This document shows, piece by piece, positions 26,701-49,608 of a DNA stretch of 56,565 bases (positions are counted from its first letter, which is position 1; each line of letters starts with the position of its first letter). The notes under the pieces were generated by a model. It searched no databases. It was given only the letters and a program-made list of their open reading frames with translations, and was not told the origin of the DNA. Origin of the DNA: Alphaproteobacteria bacterium (GTDB lineage: Bacteria; Pseudomonadota; Alphaproteobacteria; Rs-D84); NCBI GenBank assembly GCA_017520675.1, contig JAFXFG010000003.1:1-56565 (forward strand). Reading direction: 5' to 3'. A program made the position numbers and the translations under genes.

Positions 26701-27468
26701 ATGAAAAAATTAACTTTAACTTCTTTATTGACTGTCTTGGCTGTTAGTGGTGCAAATGCGGCAAATATTATTGATGGTAATCCGTTGTATCGCCCTGGCG
26801 AAGGTCGCTTTTATAGCAACTTTGCAATTGAATCACATACTGAGGCAATCGAGGACTGGAAAGTTGCGGAAGAATTTGGTTATGGTATCACAGATAGATT
26901 GGCTGTCTTTATGAAAACAAGTCTTTCTGAAACAGATGGTTTTGATTATATGTCTTGGAACGATTTCACAGTTGGCTTGAATTATCGCTTGTTAGATATG
27001 GGCAACTGGAAGGGTGATGTTTATGGTGTTTATTCTTTGAATCCTGTCTGGGGCGATCATATGCCATTCTTGGACGAAGCGTCAACGATGTATACATGGA
27101 CATTAGGTATGCGTGCGGGTTATGTTGGTGCGGGATGGACAGTCGCAGGACATGTTGACTTTGATTATCTGAACACAGAATCATTTAATTGGGGTGATGA
27201 TGGCGTACATAGTCTGAGTGCAGGATTGGATGCTCAATTGGTATTATGCCCACAATGGAACTTGATTGCTGGGGTTGAATACACCGGTATGCTGGATGAC
27301 CGTTTTGAAGATGCGGGTCGTTGGACTGGTAAGTTTGGTGCCAACTATAATCTGGATGAAACCAAATACATTGGTGCATACATCATGGGTGAAATGGAAC
27401 ATTCCACAGGCGACTGGGAAGTTGTTGATGGGATGGGATTTGGTGTGAACTTTGGCATCGAATTTTAA
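26701..27468 (+). CDS. small outer-membrane beta-barrel protein (paralog of 29380..30129)
   Basis: Signal peptide MKKLTLTSLLTVLAVSGANA, alternating beta-strand pattern, C-terminal GVNFGIEF. Confidence 0.7.
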   Translation: MKKLTLTSLLTVLAVSGANAANIIDGNPLYRPGEGRFYSNFAIESHTEAIEDWKVAEEFGYGITDRLAVFMKTSLSETDGFDYMSWNDFTVGLNYRLLDMGNWKGDVYGVYSLNPVWGDHMPFLDEASTMYTWTLGMRAGYVGAGWTVAGHVDFDYLNTESFNWGDDGVHSLSAGLDAQLVLCPQWNLIAGVEYTGMLDDRFEDAGRWTGKFGANYNLDETKYIGAYIMGEMEHSTGDWEVVDGMGFGVNFGIEF

Positions 27469-27473
27469 AAAAT

Positions 27474-27577
27474 AAATATAATAATTCATCTAAAAGCGGG
27501 ACGGGAATCTCATGTAGCGTCAGTACACTACGATTCCCGTCCCACTTTTATCTAAATCATTCTATTTATTTTTTTTG
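27474..27577 (+). repeat. hairpin repeat element, copy A
   Basis: 5' flank ataattcatctaaaa; arm gggacgggaatc (27498-27509); core tcatgtagcgtcagtacactac; arm gattcccgtccc (27532-27543); 3' flank ttttatctaaatcattctatttattttttt. Confidence 0.85.
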
Positions 27578-27587
27578 TGTGGTGCGT

Positions 27588-27680
27588 ATAATTCATCTAA
27601 AAACGGGGTGGGGTGGTTCATGTAGCGTTTGTACACTACACCAACCCCAATCCGTTTATCTGTACGGTTATCTTTTTGTA
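27588..27680 (+). repeat. hairpin repeat element, copy B
   Basis: Same flanks and core (tcatgtagcgtttgtacactac). Arms cggggtggggtggt / accaaccccaatccg are imperfectly complementary. Confidence 0.8.
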
Positions 27681-27690
27681 AAAAATCTGA

Positions 27691-27718
27691 TTGCAAAAGT
27701 TCTTAATTTCGGTATAAT
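27691..27718 (+). promoter_or_regulatory. sigma-70-like promoter TTGCAA-16-TATAAT
   Basis: TTGCAA at 27691-27696 and TATAAT at 27713-27718. Confidence 0.55.
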
Positions 27719-27724
27719 TCAAGT

Positions 27725-27989
27725 TGAACCGGATGGGAATCTGGTTCGGGGCTGTGCTAGGCCCATGACTTTCGGTGCAAATATGTTTAGGCGTCGTAAT
27801 CCGACAGTATTTTTCGTATTTGCACTGTATCTAAATGTCCCTGACGATATGTCGGGGGGCTGTCCGCTATGAAACAGGTGGCGTAACACCAAAGGCGGGC
27901 AGAGTCATTAAAGTCATGATTTAGCAACTCCCCGACCGTCTATGTTTCCCATAGCGGTTTTTTTAACAGAAAATAGAAGGGAGTCCTGG
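27725..27989 (+). promoter_or_regulatory. conserved structured 5' leader RNA (riboswitch/attenuator candidate), copy 1
   Basis: Repeated on the minus strand at 49296-49579. The two copies show compensatory changes in at least four helices. Ends in a terminator hairpin just before the RBS aagggag. Confidence 0.7.
27936..27964 (+). terminator. leader-internal intrinsic terminator
   Basis: ccgtctatg (27936-27944) / catagcgg (27950-27957) followed by T7 (27958-27964). Confidence 0.65.
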
Positions 27990-29216
27990 ATGAAAAGATT
28001 TTTAACAACTGGATTTTTTGGCGCAATTCTGGGGATTGTTATAGGCGGCGCGCCAGCGGATGCGTCGCTGATATCGCGCGGATTCTTGGACGAGGTCCTG
28101 ACCAGTTACGCCACCAACACTGCACTGGATTTAAAAGCAAACCAAACCGACCTAACCGCATTATCAAATAAAATCGGCACATTGCCAGAGGGGACAATTG
28201 ATATTGGAGGTATTGGTCTTAGTGAAATGTTTGGCAAAGAAAAATCGTTCCCTGTAACAATACCATCAGATTATACATTGTCAGATGCATTTCAAAATCT
28301 ATTTTATAGCGAGGGTGTTTTCCCCAGTTTTGTAGACATCGCTGAATATACCATGTACGGCGGAACTTTGTCTTCATATTGGGAAAGTATTTATGGTATT
28401 AAAACTTACAAAGGGTTATTAGAATTAACCAAAGATATCGGCACATTGCCCAGTGGGGAAATTGTTAGTTATGGTCCACCGTTAATTGAGATGTTGCAAG
28501 ACTATTCCTATCAATATCCCAAAGATTTAGCAGGGATATATGATGTTTTGTTTGGTACTGGAGAAAATATGGGGGTGCTTGAACGGTTTGCAACAAGTAC
28601 GTTATTTGGAGTACCGAATTCATTTAGTGGACTTCTTAGTATCGGTACTGTACCAGATGGCAAAAATCTTGCAGGTATGATAAGTGAAACCGATGCCAAA
28701 ATCGGCACATTGCCAAGTGGGGTTTTTCCTGTTTTTCCAGGAAATATGTTTCTCTCTGTTCTTAACCAACCATATACATACCCAACAAGTTTAGCAGAAT
28801 TAATCACTGCAATATACGGCAATGCAGAAACTGGCGTACACGGATTATTGGAAGGCATTTTTATTGGCTTTCCATATTATGATACAGATGGCGATGGTCA
28901 AAAAGAACCAGGTGTAGGCCTAATGCCAAATTTCAACCTTGCGAAGAATGCAAACAATCTTGCTACCACTGCAAATACTACTGCAACTGCGGCAAAAACT
29001 GCCGCCGATGCCAACACTGCCAAAATCGGAACTCTACCAACCGAATATGCGACAGTTGGGGCGGCGCTGACCGCGATAAAATCGGATATTGATGCAAAAA
29101 GTCTGCCCAGCACATCTGCTGATGGGCAATATGTGTTGACTGCTAAAAAAGTTGGCGAAACTATTAGTTATACTTGGGTCAAGATGGATTTGACAAATGA
29201 AGAGCAATCACAATAA
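27990..29216 (+). CDS. secreted/surface IGTLP-repeat protein
   Basis: Start at ATG 27990 (RBS aagggag). N-terminus MKRFLTTGFFGAILGIVIGGAPADA. Five IGT[LV]P modules. C-terminal block KIGTLPTEYATVGAALTAIK is shared with 48504..49295. Confidence 0.8.
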   Translation: MKRFLTTGFFGAILGIVIGGAPADASLISRGFLDEVLTSYATNTALDLKANQTDLTALSNKIGTLPEGTIDIGGIGLSEMFGKEKSFPVTIPSDYTLSDAFQNLFYSEGVFPSFVDIAEYTMYGGTLSSYWESIYGIKTYKGLLELTKDIGTLPSGEIVSYGPPLIEMLQDYSYQYPKDLAGIYDVLFGTGENMGVLERFATSTLFGVPNSFSGLLSIGTVPDGKNLAGMISETDAKIGTLPSGVFPVFPGNMFLSVLNQPYTYPTSLAELITAIYGNAETGVHGLLEGIFIGFPYYDTDGDGQKEPGVGLMPNFNLAKNANNLATTANTTATAAKTAADANTAKIGTLPTEYATVGAALTAIKSDIDAKSLPSTSADGQYVLTAKKVGETISYTWVKMDLTNEEQSQ

Positions 29217-29290: not shown

Positions 29291-29379
29291 GTAGTATGGC
29301 GATGGTGTTGGAATTCGTTCCTGTTTATCTGTTTATTCTTATGTTTTATTATTATTTTGCGAAGGAAAGGGGTTTCTTG

Positions 29380-30129
29380 ATGAAAAAAATATTTGTTTTG
29401 TCTGGTGTTTTATCTTTGGTGTCTGGTGCGGTTAATGCCGCTAATGTTATTAATGGCAATCCGTTCTATGGGCCAAAGCAGGGGCGATTTTACAATATTT
29501 TAACACCGTTGCAGATGAATTCTAAATTTGATTATTTTGTTATGACTGACGAATTTGGTTATGGTATTTCTGATGCCTTTACAATTCACTTGGCGACCAG
29601 TGGTTCGTATGATTCTTCGGATAATCCGCAGTTTGGTAAATGGGCTTGGAATGATTTAGAATTTGGCTTTGATTGGGATTTGTGGCATGAAAATGAATTG
29701 CATGCCGAAGTCTATGGTGATGTGCAGCAGATTTATAATACAAAACATAATTTGCAAACGGTGGCTTATAACTGGACATTGGGGGCGCGCGTTGGTCGTA
29801 TGACGGATTCTTGGACTGTTGCCGGTGTTGTTGAACTGGATTATCTGAATGATGATTTGCCACAAGATACTTTTGATGCCTGGGCAATGACGGTCGGTAT
29901 CCAAGGACAATATATCGTCAACAATAACTGGAACTGGGTTGCAGAATTGATGTTTGATTTTGATTTGTTCGATGACTATTACAATGGCGAGCAATTGCGA
30001 CTTAAAATCGGCGCGAACTACAATTTGGATGAAACGAAATATTTGGGCTTTTATGTTTCCAAAGACTTGGTGCATGGGTTTCAGAGTAGTCCGGCTGAGA
30101 TGGGGGTTCAATTTGGCATCGACTTCTAA
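29380..30129 (+). CDS. small outer-membrane beta-barrel protein (paralog of 26701..27468)
   Basis: Start at ATG 29380 (MKKIFVLSGVLSLVSGAVNA). Shared motifs NGNPFYGP..GRFY, GANYNLDETKY and C-terminal GVQFGIDF. Confidence 0.7.
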   Translation: MKKIFVLSGVLSLVSGAVNAANVINGNPFYGPKQGRFYNILTPLQMNSKFDYFVMTDEFGYGISDAFTIHLATSGSYDSSDNPQFGKWAWNDLEFGFDWDLWHENELHAEVYGDVQQIYNTKHNLQTVAYNWTLGARVGRMTDSWTVAGVVELDYLNDDLPQDTFDAWAMTVGIQGQYIVNNNWNWVAELMFDFDLFDDYYNGEQLRLKIGANYNLDETKYLGFYVSKDLVHGFQSSPAEMGVQFGIDF

Positions 30130-30139
30130 AAAATAAAAT

Positions 30140-30530
30140 CTAATAGCATATCTAAAGCGGATTGGGGTTGGTTCATGTAGCGTCTGTACACTACACCAAC
30201 CCCAATCCGTTTATCTATACTATTATCTTTTATTTTTTTCGCTAAGCAAGGGATGGGGTGGTTGGCTTATGTAGCGTTTGTACACTACGCCAACGGATTT
30301 TTCGCATATCTACACCATTCTAATTTATTTTTCGCTAAGCAAGGGGTGGGGTAGCGTCTGTATACTACACCAACCCCAATCCGTTTATCTATACTATTAT
30401 CTTTTATTTTTTTCGCTAAGCAAGGGGTGGGTTGGCTCATGTAGCGTCTGTACACTACGCCAACGGATTTTTCGCATATCTACTTTATTTTTTTGCTAAG
30501 CAAGGGGTGGGGACAAATTGGTTTTTTGTC
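30140..30530 (+). repeat. tandem array of about 4.5 hairpin-repeat units in two alternating subtypes
   Basis: The core tcatgtagcgtYtgtacactac (or deleted variants of it) occurs four times. cgctaagcaagg(g)gtgggg junctions lie at about 30240, 30342 and 30413, with a truncated copy (gctaagcaaggggtgggg) at about 30495. Confidence 0.85.
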
Positions 30531-48483: not shown

Positions 48484-48508
48484 ATAATCCCCAATAAAGG
48501 GGATTATT
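48484..48508. terminator. bidirectional hairpin between convergent genes
   Basis: aatcccc aataaa ggggatt (48486-48505). It overlaps the stop codon of the minus-strand gene. Confidence 0.6.
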
Positions 48509-49295
48509 CATTTGTGGTTGTGGTGGTTTCGCTTTCGCGGTCAATTTTTTCCCAGCGATATGTTGCATTGTCGCCAACAATATCAACCGTCAGAACAAAT
48601 TTACCAGTTGAACCCTCGGCCTTAGGGTCTGGAATTGCAGATAGTGCGGCGGCCTTGGCATCTTCGGCGATACCCTTAATCGCGGTTAGCGCCGCCCCAA
48701 CAGTCGCATATTCAGTTGGTAATGTACCTATTTTATTAACTTCTTCAGTTAATTTTGGTAATCCGTAGACAGTTTGGGCGGTTCCAGAGAGGTTGGTCAT
48801 ATTTCCACCGTAAGAAAGTAAATACGAAAAGCCGTTTTCGTTGCTATAATTATTATATAAAGCCTCGTAATCATGAAATATTTCGTCCAATCTAATGGGC
48901 CAAAATGTATCCCCTCTTTGTTGCTTAAATAAGCGTGCCATTATGCCGGCTACCCCAGGAAATTCAGGGTCAGTATAACTTAATTTTAAAAATTCAGAAA
49001 TATCATTTGTTGGAATAGGGGTGGTTTTTTCTTGGTCATTAAAGAAAAAAATACTACTTGCATTTTCAAGTCCAGCTAAAATATCCCAATATGTTAATTC
49101 TGCTGGGGTGCCGATTATGTCTGATAATGTGGTTAAATCGCTTTGGTTTGCTTTCAAATCCAATGCGGTGGTGGTGGCATAGTTTTCCAGTGCTTCGTCC
49201 AAGAATCCGCGCGACACCAGTGCTGCATTCGCTGGCGCGCCAACCGCAAGTCCCAATATCGTGCCAAATAAACCTGTTGATAAATATTTTCTCAT
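48504..49295 (-). CDS. secreted/surface protein, shorter paralog of 27990..29216
   Basis: MRKYLSTGLFGTILGLAVGAPANAALVSRGFLDEALENYATTTALDLKANQSDL closely matches the N-terminus of the paralog, and the C-terminal block KIGTLPTEYATVGAALTAIK is identical. Confidence 0.8.
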   Translation of the reverse strand: MRKYLSTGLFGTILGLAVGAPANAALVSRGFLDEALENYATTTALDLKANQSDLTTLSDIIGTPAELTYWDILAGLENASSIFFFNDQEKTTPIPTNDISEFLKLSYTDPEFPGVAGIMARLFKQQRGDTFWPIRLDEIFHDYEALYNNYSNENGFSYLLSYGGNMTNLSGTAQTVYGLPKLTEEVNKIGTLPTEYATVGAALTAIKGIAEDAKAAALSAIPDPKAEGSTGKFVLTVDIVGDNATYRWEKIDRESETTTTTNE

Positions 49296-49579
49296 TTTAT
49301 TACTCCCGTTGTTGGTTTAAAAAAATTAACCGCTATAGGAATAGCGGTCGGGGAGTTCGTAAATCATGACTTCAATGACCCTGTCCGCCTTTGGGACAAG
49401 CCCTGTTGTATAGCGGACAGCCCCCCGACATTTCGTCAGGGATTAATCAAGATACAGTGCAAATACGGAAAACATTTGTCGGAATTACGACACATAAATA
49501 TATGTTTACATATATTTGCACCGGAAGTCATAAGGCTTACGACAGCCCCGAACCAAATTCCCACTTGGTTCAGTCTTAA
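49296..49579 (-). promoter_or_regulatory. conserved structured 5' leader RNA, copy 2
   Basis: The reverse complement aligns along its whole length with 27725-27989. Confidence 0.7.
49316..49348 (-). terminator. leader-internal intrinsic terminator (copy 2)
   Basis: Minus strand reads accgctat tcct atagcggt followed by taattttttt. Confidence 0.65.
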
Positions 49580-49608
49580 TGTTATCAAATATGTGCTGGG
49601 GGGTGCAA
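49580..49608 (-). promoter_or_regulatory. candidate promoter TTGCAC-17-ATAACA at the position equivalent to the copy-1 promoter
   Basis: Reverse complement of 49603-49608 and of 49580-49585. The -10 box is weak. Confidence 0.35.

Follow-up and report, generated by a model that had tools for sequence, protein, structure and literature searches.

What is the function of a noncoding stretch of about 240 nucleotides (nt) that stands between a promoter and a surface-protein gene in an alphaproteobacterial genome of the GTDB lineage Rs-D84? The stretch lies on contig JAFXFG010000003.1 (assembly GCA_017520675.1), of which positions 1 to 56,565 were analyzed, hereafter the window. It forms the leader (copy 1, 27723-27965, + strand) of a gene for a signal-peptide surface protein of 408 amino acids (27990-29216, +). 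It recurs as copy 2 (49322-49574, - strand; 49322-49571 from the first helix onward) in front of a paralogous gene for a protein of 263 amino acids (48504-49295, -). Comparison with homologues leads us to favor, with some reserve, a cis-acting bistable transcription attenuator. Loci collected for comparison are designated by L and a number.

The leader as a structured noncoding RNA

Copy 1 has its own promoter, TTGCAA-16-TATAAT (27691-27718, +), which agrees with the consensus at 10 of 12 positions and is the sole promoter-like site in 27450-28100. There are 7 nt between the end of the -10 box and the first helix, H1, and both promoter boxes keep a fixed distance in an alignment of 21 homologues. 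At the other end of the leader, an intrinsic terminator (27935-27965, +; stem 27935-44/27950-58 with one bulge, then a T7 run) precedes the Shine-Dalgarno (SD) sequence GAAGGGAG (27976-83, +) and the ATG at 27990. With only ~25 nt between the T run and the ATG, transcription of the gene has to pass through the leader. For copy 2 we recognized a promoter-like site, TTGCAC-18-TAACAT (49579-49608, -), by alignment with the other promoters; it is weaker than that of copy 1 and was not called by the consensus promoter scan. The terminator of copy 2 (49348-49322, -) was picked up by the terminator scan.

The two copies are 78.4% identical over 259 nt by blastn (copy 2 at 49578-49310, minus strand) and 79% identical over 241 ungapped columns in a MAFFT alignment. 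With filters off, a search with a covariance model of the 3' core found exactly two copies in the window, at 84.3 and 88.3 bits, the next best match having 12 bits; model R1 of this core placed copy 2 at 49347-49429 with 88.3 bits. The folding z-scores against shuffled sequences were -5.0 for copy 1 and -6.75 for copy 2. A preliminary description, made from the letters of the window, had named the copy 1 promoter, the ribosome-binding site (RBS) and ATG, a second copy at ~80% identity, a set of helices, the terminator with its T run, and compensatory differences between the copies. All of these are where it placed them, and the listed differences are indeed compensatory. Under the refined fold described below, copies 1 and 2 differ by five double and six single pair-preserving changes and by four breaks.

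As the preliminary description had proposed, homologues were collected and covariation was checked. More than 50 leader homologues were found, with nhmmer E-values down to 1e-61. RNAalifold, run on a plain MAFFT alignment of 44 leaders that was not fitted to any structure, returned a nested consensus fold with double changes at 32 of 58 pairs. The refined fold was counted on 50 sequences, giving 2896 cells, of which 93.5% were paired. It contained 397 double-change cells, compared with 124±10 in column shuffles, and none of 500 shuffles reached the observed number. Slid controls were paired in 36-45% of cells and had 38-75 double-change cells. Many pairs tolerate G-U, for example AU:30/GU:20 and CG:26/UG:22 among the 50 sequences. 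The opposite strand would have A-C at these positions; the covariation is thus that of an RNA on the sense strand.

No conserved open reading frame (ORF) was found in the leader, each frame having stops in 27-41 of the 44 members. The indels between the window copies measure 1, 4, 8, 2, 1, 1, 1, 2, 2 and 2 nt and are not multiples of three. The stops in every frame and the non-triplet indels speak strongly against a translated leader or a leader-peptide attenuator. Covariation, z-scores and the lack of a conserved ORF agree with the structured noncoding 5' leader of the preliminary description.

Two mutually exclusive pairing schemes

Coordinates in this section refer to the + strand for copy 1 and, in brackets after the semicolon, to the - strand for copy 2. 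The leader begins with H1 (27726-34/27739-47; 49571-49550), a 9-bp hairpin with a conserved GGGA tetraloop of the GNRA type. H1 is paired in 94% of cells and shows double changes at five of nine pairs. Behind it lies alpha, GGGG (27748-51; 49549-46). The 5' part of the leader is joined to its 3' part by two long-range helices, LR1 and LR2. In LR1, strand b, UGCUAGG (27755-61; 49542-36), pairs with b' (27920-26; 49363-57). It is paired in 99% of cells, and its three central pairs occur in all four Watson-Crick types, none of them broken. In LR2, strand c, CAUGACUUU (27764-72; 49532-24), pairs with c' (27910-18; 49373-65), with double changes at nine of nine pairs.

An alignment-independent control, in which cognate and non-cognate strands of the 44 leaders were paired, gave LR2 duplexes of -9.9±1.9 kcal/mol for cognate and -1.7±1.9 kcal/mol for non-cognate partners. 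For LR1 the values were -2.9 and +0.8 kcal/mol, and the cognate LR partner was the best in 39 of 44 rows. The LR2 sequences are distinct in 42 of the 44 leaders. In a single metagenome-assembled genome (MAG), RGIG3039, all 13 copies compared differ in LR2, and the 14th, L005, pairs through a distinct LR2 of its own.

Between the LR 5' strands and the 3' domain stands H3 (27773-27827; 49523-49455), with an outer helix, CGGUGCAAAUAU/GUAUUUGCACUG, and an inner hairpin, GUCG-UAAUC-CGAC. The outer helix (27773-84/27816-27) is paired in 90-95% of cells and has compensatory changes, such as GGACAC/GUGUCU in L001; the architecture of the inner part varies across the family. In many metagenome copies (for example L036, L038, L044, L049 and L058; A3 columns 59-147) H3 reads CGGUGC-GAAA-GCAUCG ... 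CGGUG-UUUUUG-CACCG. This sequence can form either two local hairpins, of which the first has a GNRA loop, or an outer helix with an inner hairpin. Support for the local GAAA hairpin comes from L057, where its stem is entirely different; in L032 it is the only hairpin. The metagenome type of H3 may be a second alternative-pairing module.

The 3' domain starts with beta, UCCCUGAC (27838-45; 49442-35), and gamma, GUCGGGGGG (27851-59; 49429-21). Beta is the 5' strand of hairpin Pa (27838-45 with 27851-58), which is paired in 95% of cells. The P2 arm (27860-27902; 49420-49381) has a refined stem, 27860-66/27896-902, with double changes at six of seven pairs, a conserved internal loop, UAUACAAC/AAAG, and at its apex a hairpin that varies (27877-90). 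The internal loop is common to Rfam family RF02221, sRNA-Xcc1, a small RNA (sRNA). In the P3 region (27903-27926), the hairpin 27903-08/27916-21 of the alternative fold holds c' and runs into b'. The P3 stem is conserved but hardly covaries, and L041 has lost it; LR1 and LR2 are present throughout. The last segment, delta, CUCCCCGAC (27928-36; 49355-47), is the 3' strand of helix P1, and its final G34, A35 and C36 also form the bottom of the terminator stem. Junction nucleotides GAAUCA, UAUACAAC and GUUAU are invariant. In the fold of both copies H1, the long LR stem and the terminator abut with no unpaired nucleotides between them. All members conserve a hairpin followed by a U run, and the terminator stem covaries in its distal part; in several members, for example with GGCGGUCUAAUUUUUU, the U tract is interrupted.

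Alpha, beta, gamma and delta can follow either of two pairing schemes that exclude each other, here called state A and state B. Gamma pairs either with beta, as Pa, in state A or with delta, as P1, in state B. The CCCC of delta (27930-33) pairs with alpha in state A or with gamma in state B. Once P1 is formed, alpha and beta are complementary to each other, and alpha could pair with the CCCU of beta. The alpha:delta helix is paired in 98.5% of cells and P1 in 100% (50 sequences), with double changes in P1 at three pairs (GC:46/UG:3/AU:1, GU:44/GC:3/AU:2/UA:1 and GC:47/UG:3).

The variants preserve both schemes. In L055:7126-7365, with alpha AGGA, beta (U)CCUGGC, gamma GUCGGGAAG and delta CUUCCUGAC, the covariation is four-way: alpha:delta (AGGA with UCCU), beta:gamma, gamma:delta and alpha:beta all remain paired. 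In the L002/L070/L072 lineage alpha is unchanged, beta is GCCUG(G/A)C, then GCCUAAC, gamma is GUUGGGUGU and delta is GCGCCCGAC. Here the change of C30 to G in delta is offset in gamma (U-G in P1) and in beta (G-U in Pa), but alpha does not follow and loses one pair; in L072 a G-C to A-U change in Pa is complete. L005, with unchanged alpha, beta ACCCC, gamma GUCGGGGUG and delta CACCCCGAC, keeps both P1 and Pa. In L028:70-290 alpha and delta are unchanged, beta is CCCCAAU and gamma is GUUGGGGAG, which amounts to a G-C to A-U change in Pa. Pa covaries in its distal extension as well, by reading of the alignment (GACU/AGUC, GACC/GGUC, GACCG/CGGUC and GACUG/CAGUC). Since compensatory changes preserve both schemes, both are under selection, which is the comparative signature of a switch. 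The preliminary description had suggested an attenuator-type layout, and these changes agree with it.

Its fold model stands in part. The helices that it named exist, but LR1 and LR2, the best-supported ones, were missed, as was the hairpin CCCUGAC/GUCGGGG (27839-45/27851-57) of Pa, a competitor of its "closing helix". Both H2 (27749-53/27760-64) and this closing helix, P1, are present as parts of the alternative state and not of a single static fold. H2 has one covarying pair (CG:33/UA:6/UG:2). The 5' strand of LR1 forms the loop of H2 and overlaps its 3' side, and the loop of hairpin 27903-21 is the 3' strand of LR2. All conserved unpaired segments of state A (CC 27762-63, AAUCA, G58-G59 and GAC) are paired in state B.

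Forcing P1 makes the nested fold on average 9.8 kcal/mol less stable than the nested state A; the two window copies have -101.9 and -100.0 kcal/mol in state A against -90.6 and -84.2 kcal/mol, respectively, when P1 is forced. The advantage of ~10 kcal/mol fits a default-off switch that needs a factor. The two schemes reach the terminator through delta, whose G34, A35 and C36 serve both P1, as its 3' end, and the terminator stem, as its base. In this stem, 45 of 50 sequences have AU at A35-U58 and all 50 have CG at C36-G57; G34 also pairs, via GUC, in many members.

From these data we propose the following mechanism. Each gene would be read from its own sigma-70-type promoter, and the first product would be a ~240-nt RNA with two exclusive folds. 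In state A the 5' and 3' halves would zip via LR2, LR1 and alpha:delta (GGGG with CCCC), and beta and gamma would form hairpin Pa. The GAC at the end of delta would be left free, the full terminator would form against the U tract, and transcription would stop before the RBS. In state B gamma and delta would form P1 as the closing stem of a three-way junction with P2 and P3, like that of sRNA-Xcc1, with H2 alongside. P1 would then withdraw the bottom 2-3 nt of the terminator stem from the U tract. Because the hairpin of an intrinsic terminator works only if it extends to the U tract, P1 should weaken termination, and read-through into the surface-protein gene would be expected. The leader would thus be off by default, and on when something stabilizes state B or blocks the formation of the LR helices or Pa during transcription. 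Candidate triggers are a small ligand, a protein, another RNA or transcription kinetics. That state A terminates, that state B reads through and that the choice between them is regulated we infer from sequence comparison.

Several points weigh against such an attenuator. P1 and the terminator have just 2-3 nt in common, and the GC-rich stem of 7 bp that is left might suffice for termination. A long antiterminator of the classical kind was not found. The one candidate, the 5' strand of P2 (CCGCUAUG) with the 3' strand of the terminator (CAUAGCGG), is perfect in both window copies. It was rejected, as by reading of the alignment it fails to covary in L001, L003, L016, L022 and the metagenome group. 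The variants of P1 and alpha:delta come from about four independent lineages, and the metagenome pattern behind 24 sequences fixed gamma and delta, so that any variants in these two segments would have escaped it. LR1 and LR2 might persist beside P1 in a pseudoknot. The alternative helices could also reflect a folding pathway instead of a regulated switch, and the gene association points to no ligand.

Two further arrangements were considered and dropped. The coexistence of H2, P3, LR1 and LR2 was judged sterically implausible by reasoning, the loops being too short. An anti-SD role of CUCCCC against GGGAG or GGGG in the RBSs was set aside because delta is paired in both states.

Members, downstream genes and relatives

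The leader occurs in uncultured gut Alphaproteobacteria, from goat, human and other gut metagenomes, and RGIG3039 has at least 14 copies. We gathered 24 loci from three MAGs via the downstream protein, a route with no bias towards the RNA. The leader is directly upstream in 19 of the 24, and 14 of these 19 are in RGIG3039. A DNA pattern from the 3' domain added 32 true copies from gut and other metagenomes; eight further matches of high GC content (L027, L039, L040, L043, L051, L052, L054 and L062) were set aside as chance. More orthologous and paralogous copies came from other contigs, including L070, L071, L074 and L078. The 3'-domain pattern gave 0 matches in viral contigs, and BLAST of the whole leader gave none in phage and plasmid collections.

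The position of the leader is constant. In most of 53 elements the distance from the GACCG motif to the start codon is 41-58 nt, with the ORF on the same strand, and the T run lies 15-35 nt ahead of the start codon. These short distances leave no room for a second promoter.

Both surface proteins of the window (408 and 263 amino acids) have a signal peptide and conserved N- and C-termini, and neither has a Pfam domain. Their family counts at least 178 members, almost only from uncultured gut Alphaproteobacteria. The N-terminus, SRGFLDE..YAT..ALDLKANQ.DL, and the C-terminus, KIGTLPTEYATVGAALTAIK...GKFVLT, are conserved around a highly variable middle part, a pattern that resembles a variable surface-antigen family (L001-L024 and the window). 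Some members (L004, L010 and L014) have no leader. Other genes behind the leader encode a 1154-amino-acid autotransporter with Chlamydia polymorphic membrane protein (PMP) repeats, beta-barrels of outer membrane proteins (OMPs), lipoproteins, Cys-rich secreted proteins and a few small zinc-ribbon proteins. The genes behind the leader form a coherent envelope-protein class. The preliminary description had tied two copies to one paralogous gene, which proved too narrow: the leader is multi-copy and stands before many unrelated envelope-protein genes.

The window is chromosomal, with ORFs of the size of a ribosomal-protein operon at 31-47 kb. The copy 1 locus is syntenic across related MAGs, L070, L071, L074 and L078 among them. 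An intergenic repeat resembling repetitive extragenic palindromic (REP) sequences, with the core CATGTAGCGTNNGTACACTAC, is present in five copies (27511-27531, 27619-27639, 30174-30194, 30268-30288 and 30438-30458, all +), where ~0.01 copies are expected by chance. Each lies inside a longer hairpin with a variable outer stem. These repeats flank a block made of leader copy 1, its surface-protein gene and the next gene (29296-30129), and are also found in L003, L011 and L014. In L005, from a goat-gut alphaproteobacterial MAG, a sub-threshold match to Wolbachia sRNA 46 (RF02625; 3755-3879, +; 50 bits against a gathering threshold of 65.3, E=1e-7) lies downstream of a surface-protein gene.

No Rfam family was detected at its gathering threshold in a scan of the whole window. 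In E-value mode the only meaningful match was to RF02221, below threshold; miRNA-type matches at E~7 were noise. Copy 2 scored 32.1 bits (E=9e-4) against a gathering threshold of 53, and copy 1 gave no RF02221 match at E<=10. In 13 homologous loci RF02221 aligned full-length (positions 1-87) to the 3' domain with 24.5-42 bits, and a true RF02221 member in an E. coli prophage, used as control, had 68.2 bits. With scores below 53 bits, the leader does not belong to RF02221 by the gathering threshold. The reciprocal search used R1, which was built from alphaproteobacterial cores only. R1 found all five of the bona fide phage and prophage RF02221 elements (L065-L069) at their annotated positions, with 19.0-39.9 bits and E-values of 5e-8 to 5e-3 in 8.7 kb. 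Full-length sub-threshold alignments and reciprocal detection point to kinship, and the 3' domain is, by this comparison, a distant relative or sister family of RF02221, extended by the 5' domain, Pa and a separate terminator. The preliminary description had matched the leader to no known class; this holds at the gathering threshold but passes over the relative below it.

The likeness to sRNA-Xcc1 extends to several features. Each has a three-way junction (~85 nt) closed by a G/C-rich stem, with the internal loop AUACAA / AA in P2, a hairpin P3 and a J3/1 that is rich in U and ends in A-C. Both lie as leaders directly ahead of a same-strand ORF, and in both the P3 loop and J3/1 have complements elsewhere in the leader. 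They differ in that the present element is ~240 nt long, with a 5' domain (H1, LR strands and H3), Pa and a separate terminator. It is also chromosomal, multi-copy and placed before envelope genes, whereas RF02221 stands before phage antirepressor genes or integron symE cassettes. The mobile-element context typical of RF02221 (integron cassette, phage, plasmid or transposon) was not found for the window element. A short element in L028 (5888-6009, -), with a promoter of its own, is made up of just beta, the three-way junction and the terminator. It lacks the 5' domain and the LR partners, and a full-length copy lies on the same contig (L028 76-287). The 3' module can thus stand alone, like classical sRNA-Xcc1.

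In the literature sRNA-Xcc1 is described as an 88-nt integron-borne, trans-acting sRNA (PMC2996969). It has been found ahead of symE in cassettes of Xanthomonas (10.1101/2025.06.18.660453), in APSE phage ahead of an ORF6N gene (10.1101/2020.03.17.996009), and in Xylella in arrays beside C4 and IsrK (PMC12189769). The C4 family and a c4-a1b1 motif are listed in PMC2864571. We found no description of the present leader RNA in the literature, and a catalogue of structured RNAs of the human microbiome gave no sequence match in the first 200 of its 408 supplementary files.

Five phages or prophages have an RF02221 element immediately ahead of an antirepressor gene (Ant, KilA-N or BRO-N). The hosts of these elements are Stx phages, an E. 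coli prophage, Acinetobacter phage 4316, Aaphi23 and Pasteurella Pmp3, and the elements are located at L065 2400-2615, L066 300-525, L067 280-530, L068 290-535 and L069 270-535. The P3 loop of each has a 6-7-nt complement twice, once upstream in the leader and once over the SD/start of ant, and these covary between phages. The loop CUGGUAG in L065 is matched by UACCAG upstream and CUACCAG downstream, and CUUCGU in L067 by UACGAAG and ACGAAG. In the other three the upstream and downstream complements are the same: CAAGUAG for the loop CUACUUG in L066, CAAACAG for CUGUUUG in L068 and CCAAAAA for UUUUUGG in L069. J3/1 likewise has complements, UUUUGAG with CUCAAAA and UUUCGA with UCGAAA. Behind the upstream sites, L065 2427-2460, L066 341-375 and L068 316-350 contain overlapping GCGG/CCGC/GCGG hairpins with a U run. 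These look like a terminator/antiterminator pair between the upstream sites and the sRNA-Xcc1 junction.

The c4 RNA of phages P1 and P7, on which Citron and Schuster (1990) and Biere et al. (1992) worked, is reportedly a small structured RNA inside the leader of the operon that it controls; in phage P1 it is released from this leader by RNase P. The immI region of P1/P7 has the layout a1/b1 - c4 - a2/b2, and the phage RF02221 leaders have the same layout. This suggests that RF02221 may be a c4-type cis/trans antisense regulator of ant and not a generic trans-acting virulence sRNA. If so, hundreds of database annotations would read differently.

The alphaproteobacterial leader is c4-like (RF01695) to a degree, and it gave no Rfam C4 match. 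Like c4, and like the phage RF02221 members, it has two variable segments with complements upstream in the leader, b and c of LR1 and LR2 standing for a1 and b1. The variable segments differ between copies, and their partners covary. A target of the a2/b2 type at the RBS was not found. In the downstream 140 nt, c' reached -6.0 kcal/mol with cognate and -5.9 kcal/mol with non-cognate sequences, and b' -3.6 vs -3.8 kcal/mol, so no cognate complement is apparent; the flanks had 12 cognate 8-mer matches against a control mean of 18. Without a cognate complement downstream or in the flanks, the leader is not an RBS blocker of the c4 type. It further differs from c4 in that its output appears to be an intrinsic terminator and not a translational block, and its genes are not antirepressors.

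Alternative explanations and significance

The kinship with sRNA-Xcc1 and c4 raises the question of whether the RNA acts in trans. It could be a stand-alone, constitutively terminated sRNA of ~240 nt of the c4/sRNA-Xcc1 type, whose terminated or processed form would be the active molecule, with the gene expressed only via leaky read-through. Each copy has its own promoter and terminator, H1, the LR stem and the terminator abut without gaps as in a compact terminated RNA, and the 3' domain is related to RF02221, which in phages looks like a c4-type antisense RNA within ant-gene leaders. However, the variable strands are fully paired within their own molecule and have no cognate-specific complement downstream or in the flanks. 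A same-strand ORF follows directly, at 41-58 nt, with no space for another promoter, and at least 14 different gene-attached copies in one genome would be hard to explain. We consider a trans-acting sRNA quite unlikely. The hypervariable, self-complementary LR1 and LR2 might also serve as private "addresses", as in c4 heteroimmunity, with leaders of the same gene pairing in trans, a reading to which we give only a slim chance. If it were true, terminated or processed leader RNA would bias the A/B folding of the nascent leader of the same gene. The outcome would be a gene-specific RNA feedback and bistable ON/OFF, phase-variation-like expression without a DNA change.

As a sub-case of the attenuator, the leader could be a strict small-molecule riboswitch, whose junction would bind a metabolite or second messenger that coordinates the surface proteins. 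It has a large conserved and covarying domain, invariant junction nucleotides, a GNRA loop and a terminator behind them, and it is multi-copy upstream of surface proteins. In some bacteria, c-di-GMP-I and -II riboswitches are likewise present in several copies per genome ahead of genes for surface and surface-associated proteins. Like terminator/antiterminator riboswitches in general, the leader is conserved and structured, with exclusive helices of which one overlaps a terminator just before the RBS. It differs from the general attenuator in the size of this overlap (2-3 nt) and in having a four-segment exchange and two long-range helices instead of a simple P1/antiterminator competition. Yet no riboswitch family matches even at E<=10, the closest relatives (RF02221) are not known as ligand binders, and the gene set gives no metabolic clue, which makes a riboswitch in the strict sense unlikely. 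Neither a hammerhead or other ribozyme, for which there was no Rfam match, nor an 11-nt GNRA receptor in P2, where the receptor-like motif has the wrong strand order, was retained. The dominance of state A by ~10 kcal/mol and the interrupted U tracts in several terminators would also suit a static structured 5' untranslated region (an mRNA stabilizer, processing site or insulator), in which the competing helices are intermediates and the "terminator" is a structural hairpin. Such a region is very unlikely, since both exclusive schemes are kept by compensatory and four-way covariation, all members have the hairpin and U run, and state B pairs every conserved segment that state A leaves single-stranded. 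We give next to no credence to a DNA-level repeat (a recombination or gene-conversion cassette boundary, or a mobile element) or to a leader-peptide attenuator. The multiple copies ahead of a variable surface-protein family and the REP-like repeats around the copy 1 locus would fit a DNA repeat. Against this stand the G-U tolerance and sense-strand RNA covariation, the unrelated genes that also follow the leader, and the missing matches in viral contigs, phages and plasmids; against a leader peptide, there is no conserved ORF, and most members have stops in every frame.

As judged from the comparison of its members, the leader is a new RNA family, probably a terminator-based leader switch on a core like that of sRNA-Xcc1 and c4. 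Its fold is unusual, combining a four-segment strand exchange with two long-range "address" helices, is backed by four-way covariation and makes testable predictions. It adds a large, strongly covarying and so far uncatalogued family of putative cis-regulatory RNAs from uncultured gut Alphaproteobacteria. One RNA device appears to gate much of the surface proteome of these bacteria, including the variable surface family, autotransporters, OMPs and lipoproteins. It may thereby offer a handle on how unstudied commensals control what they display to their host.

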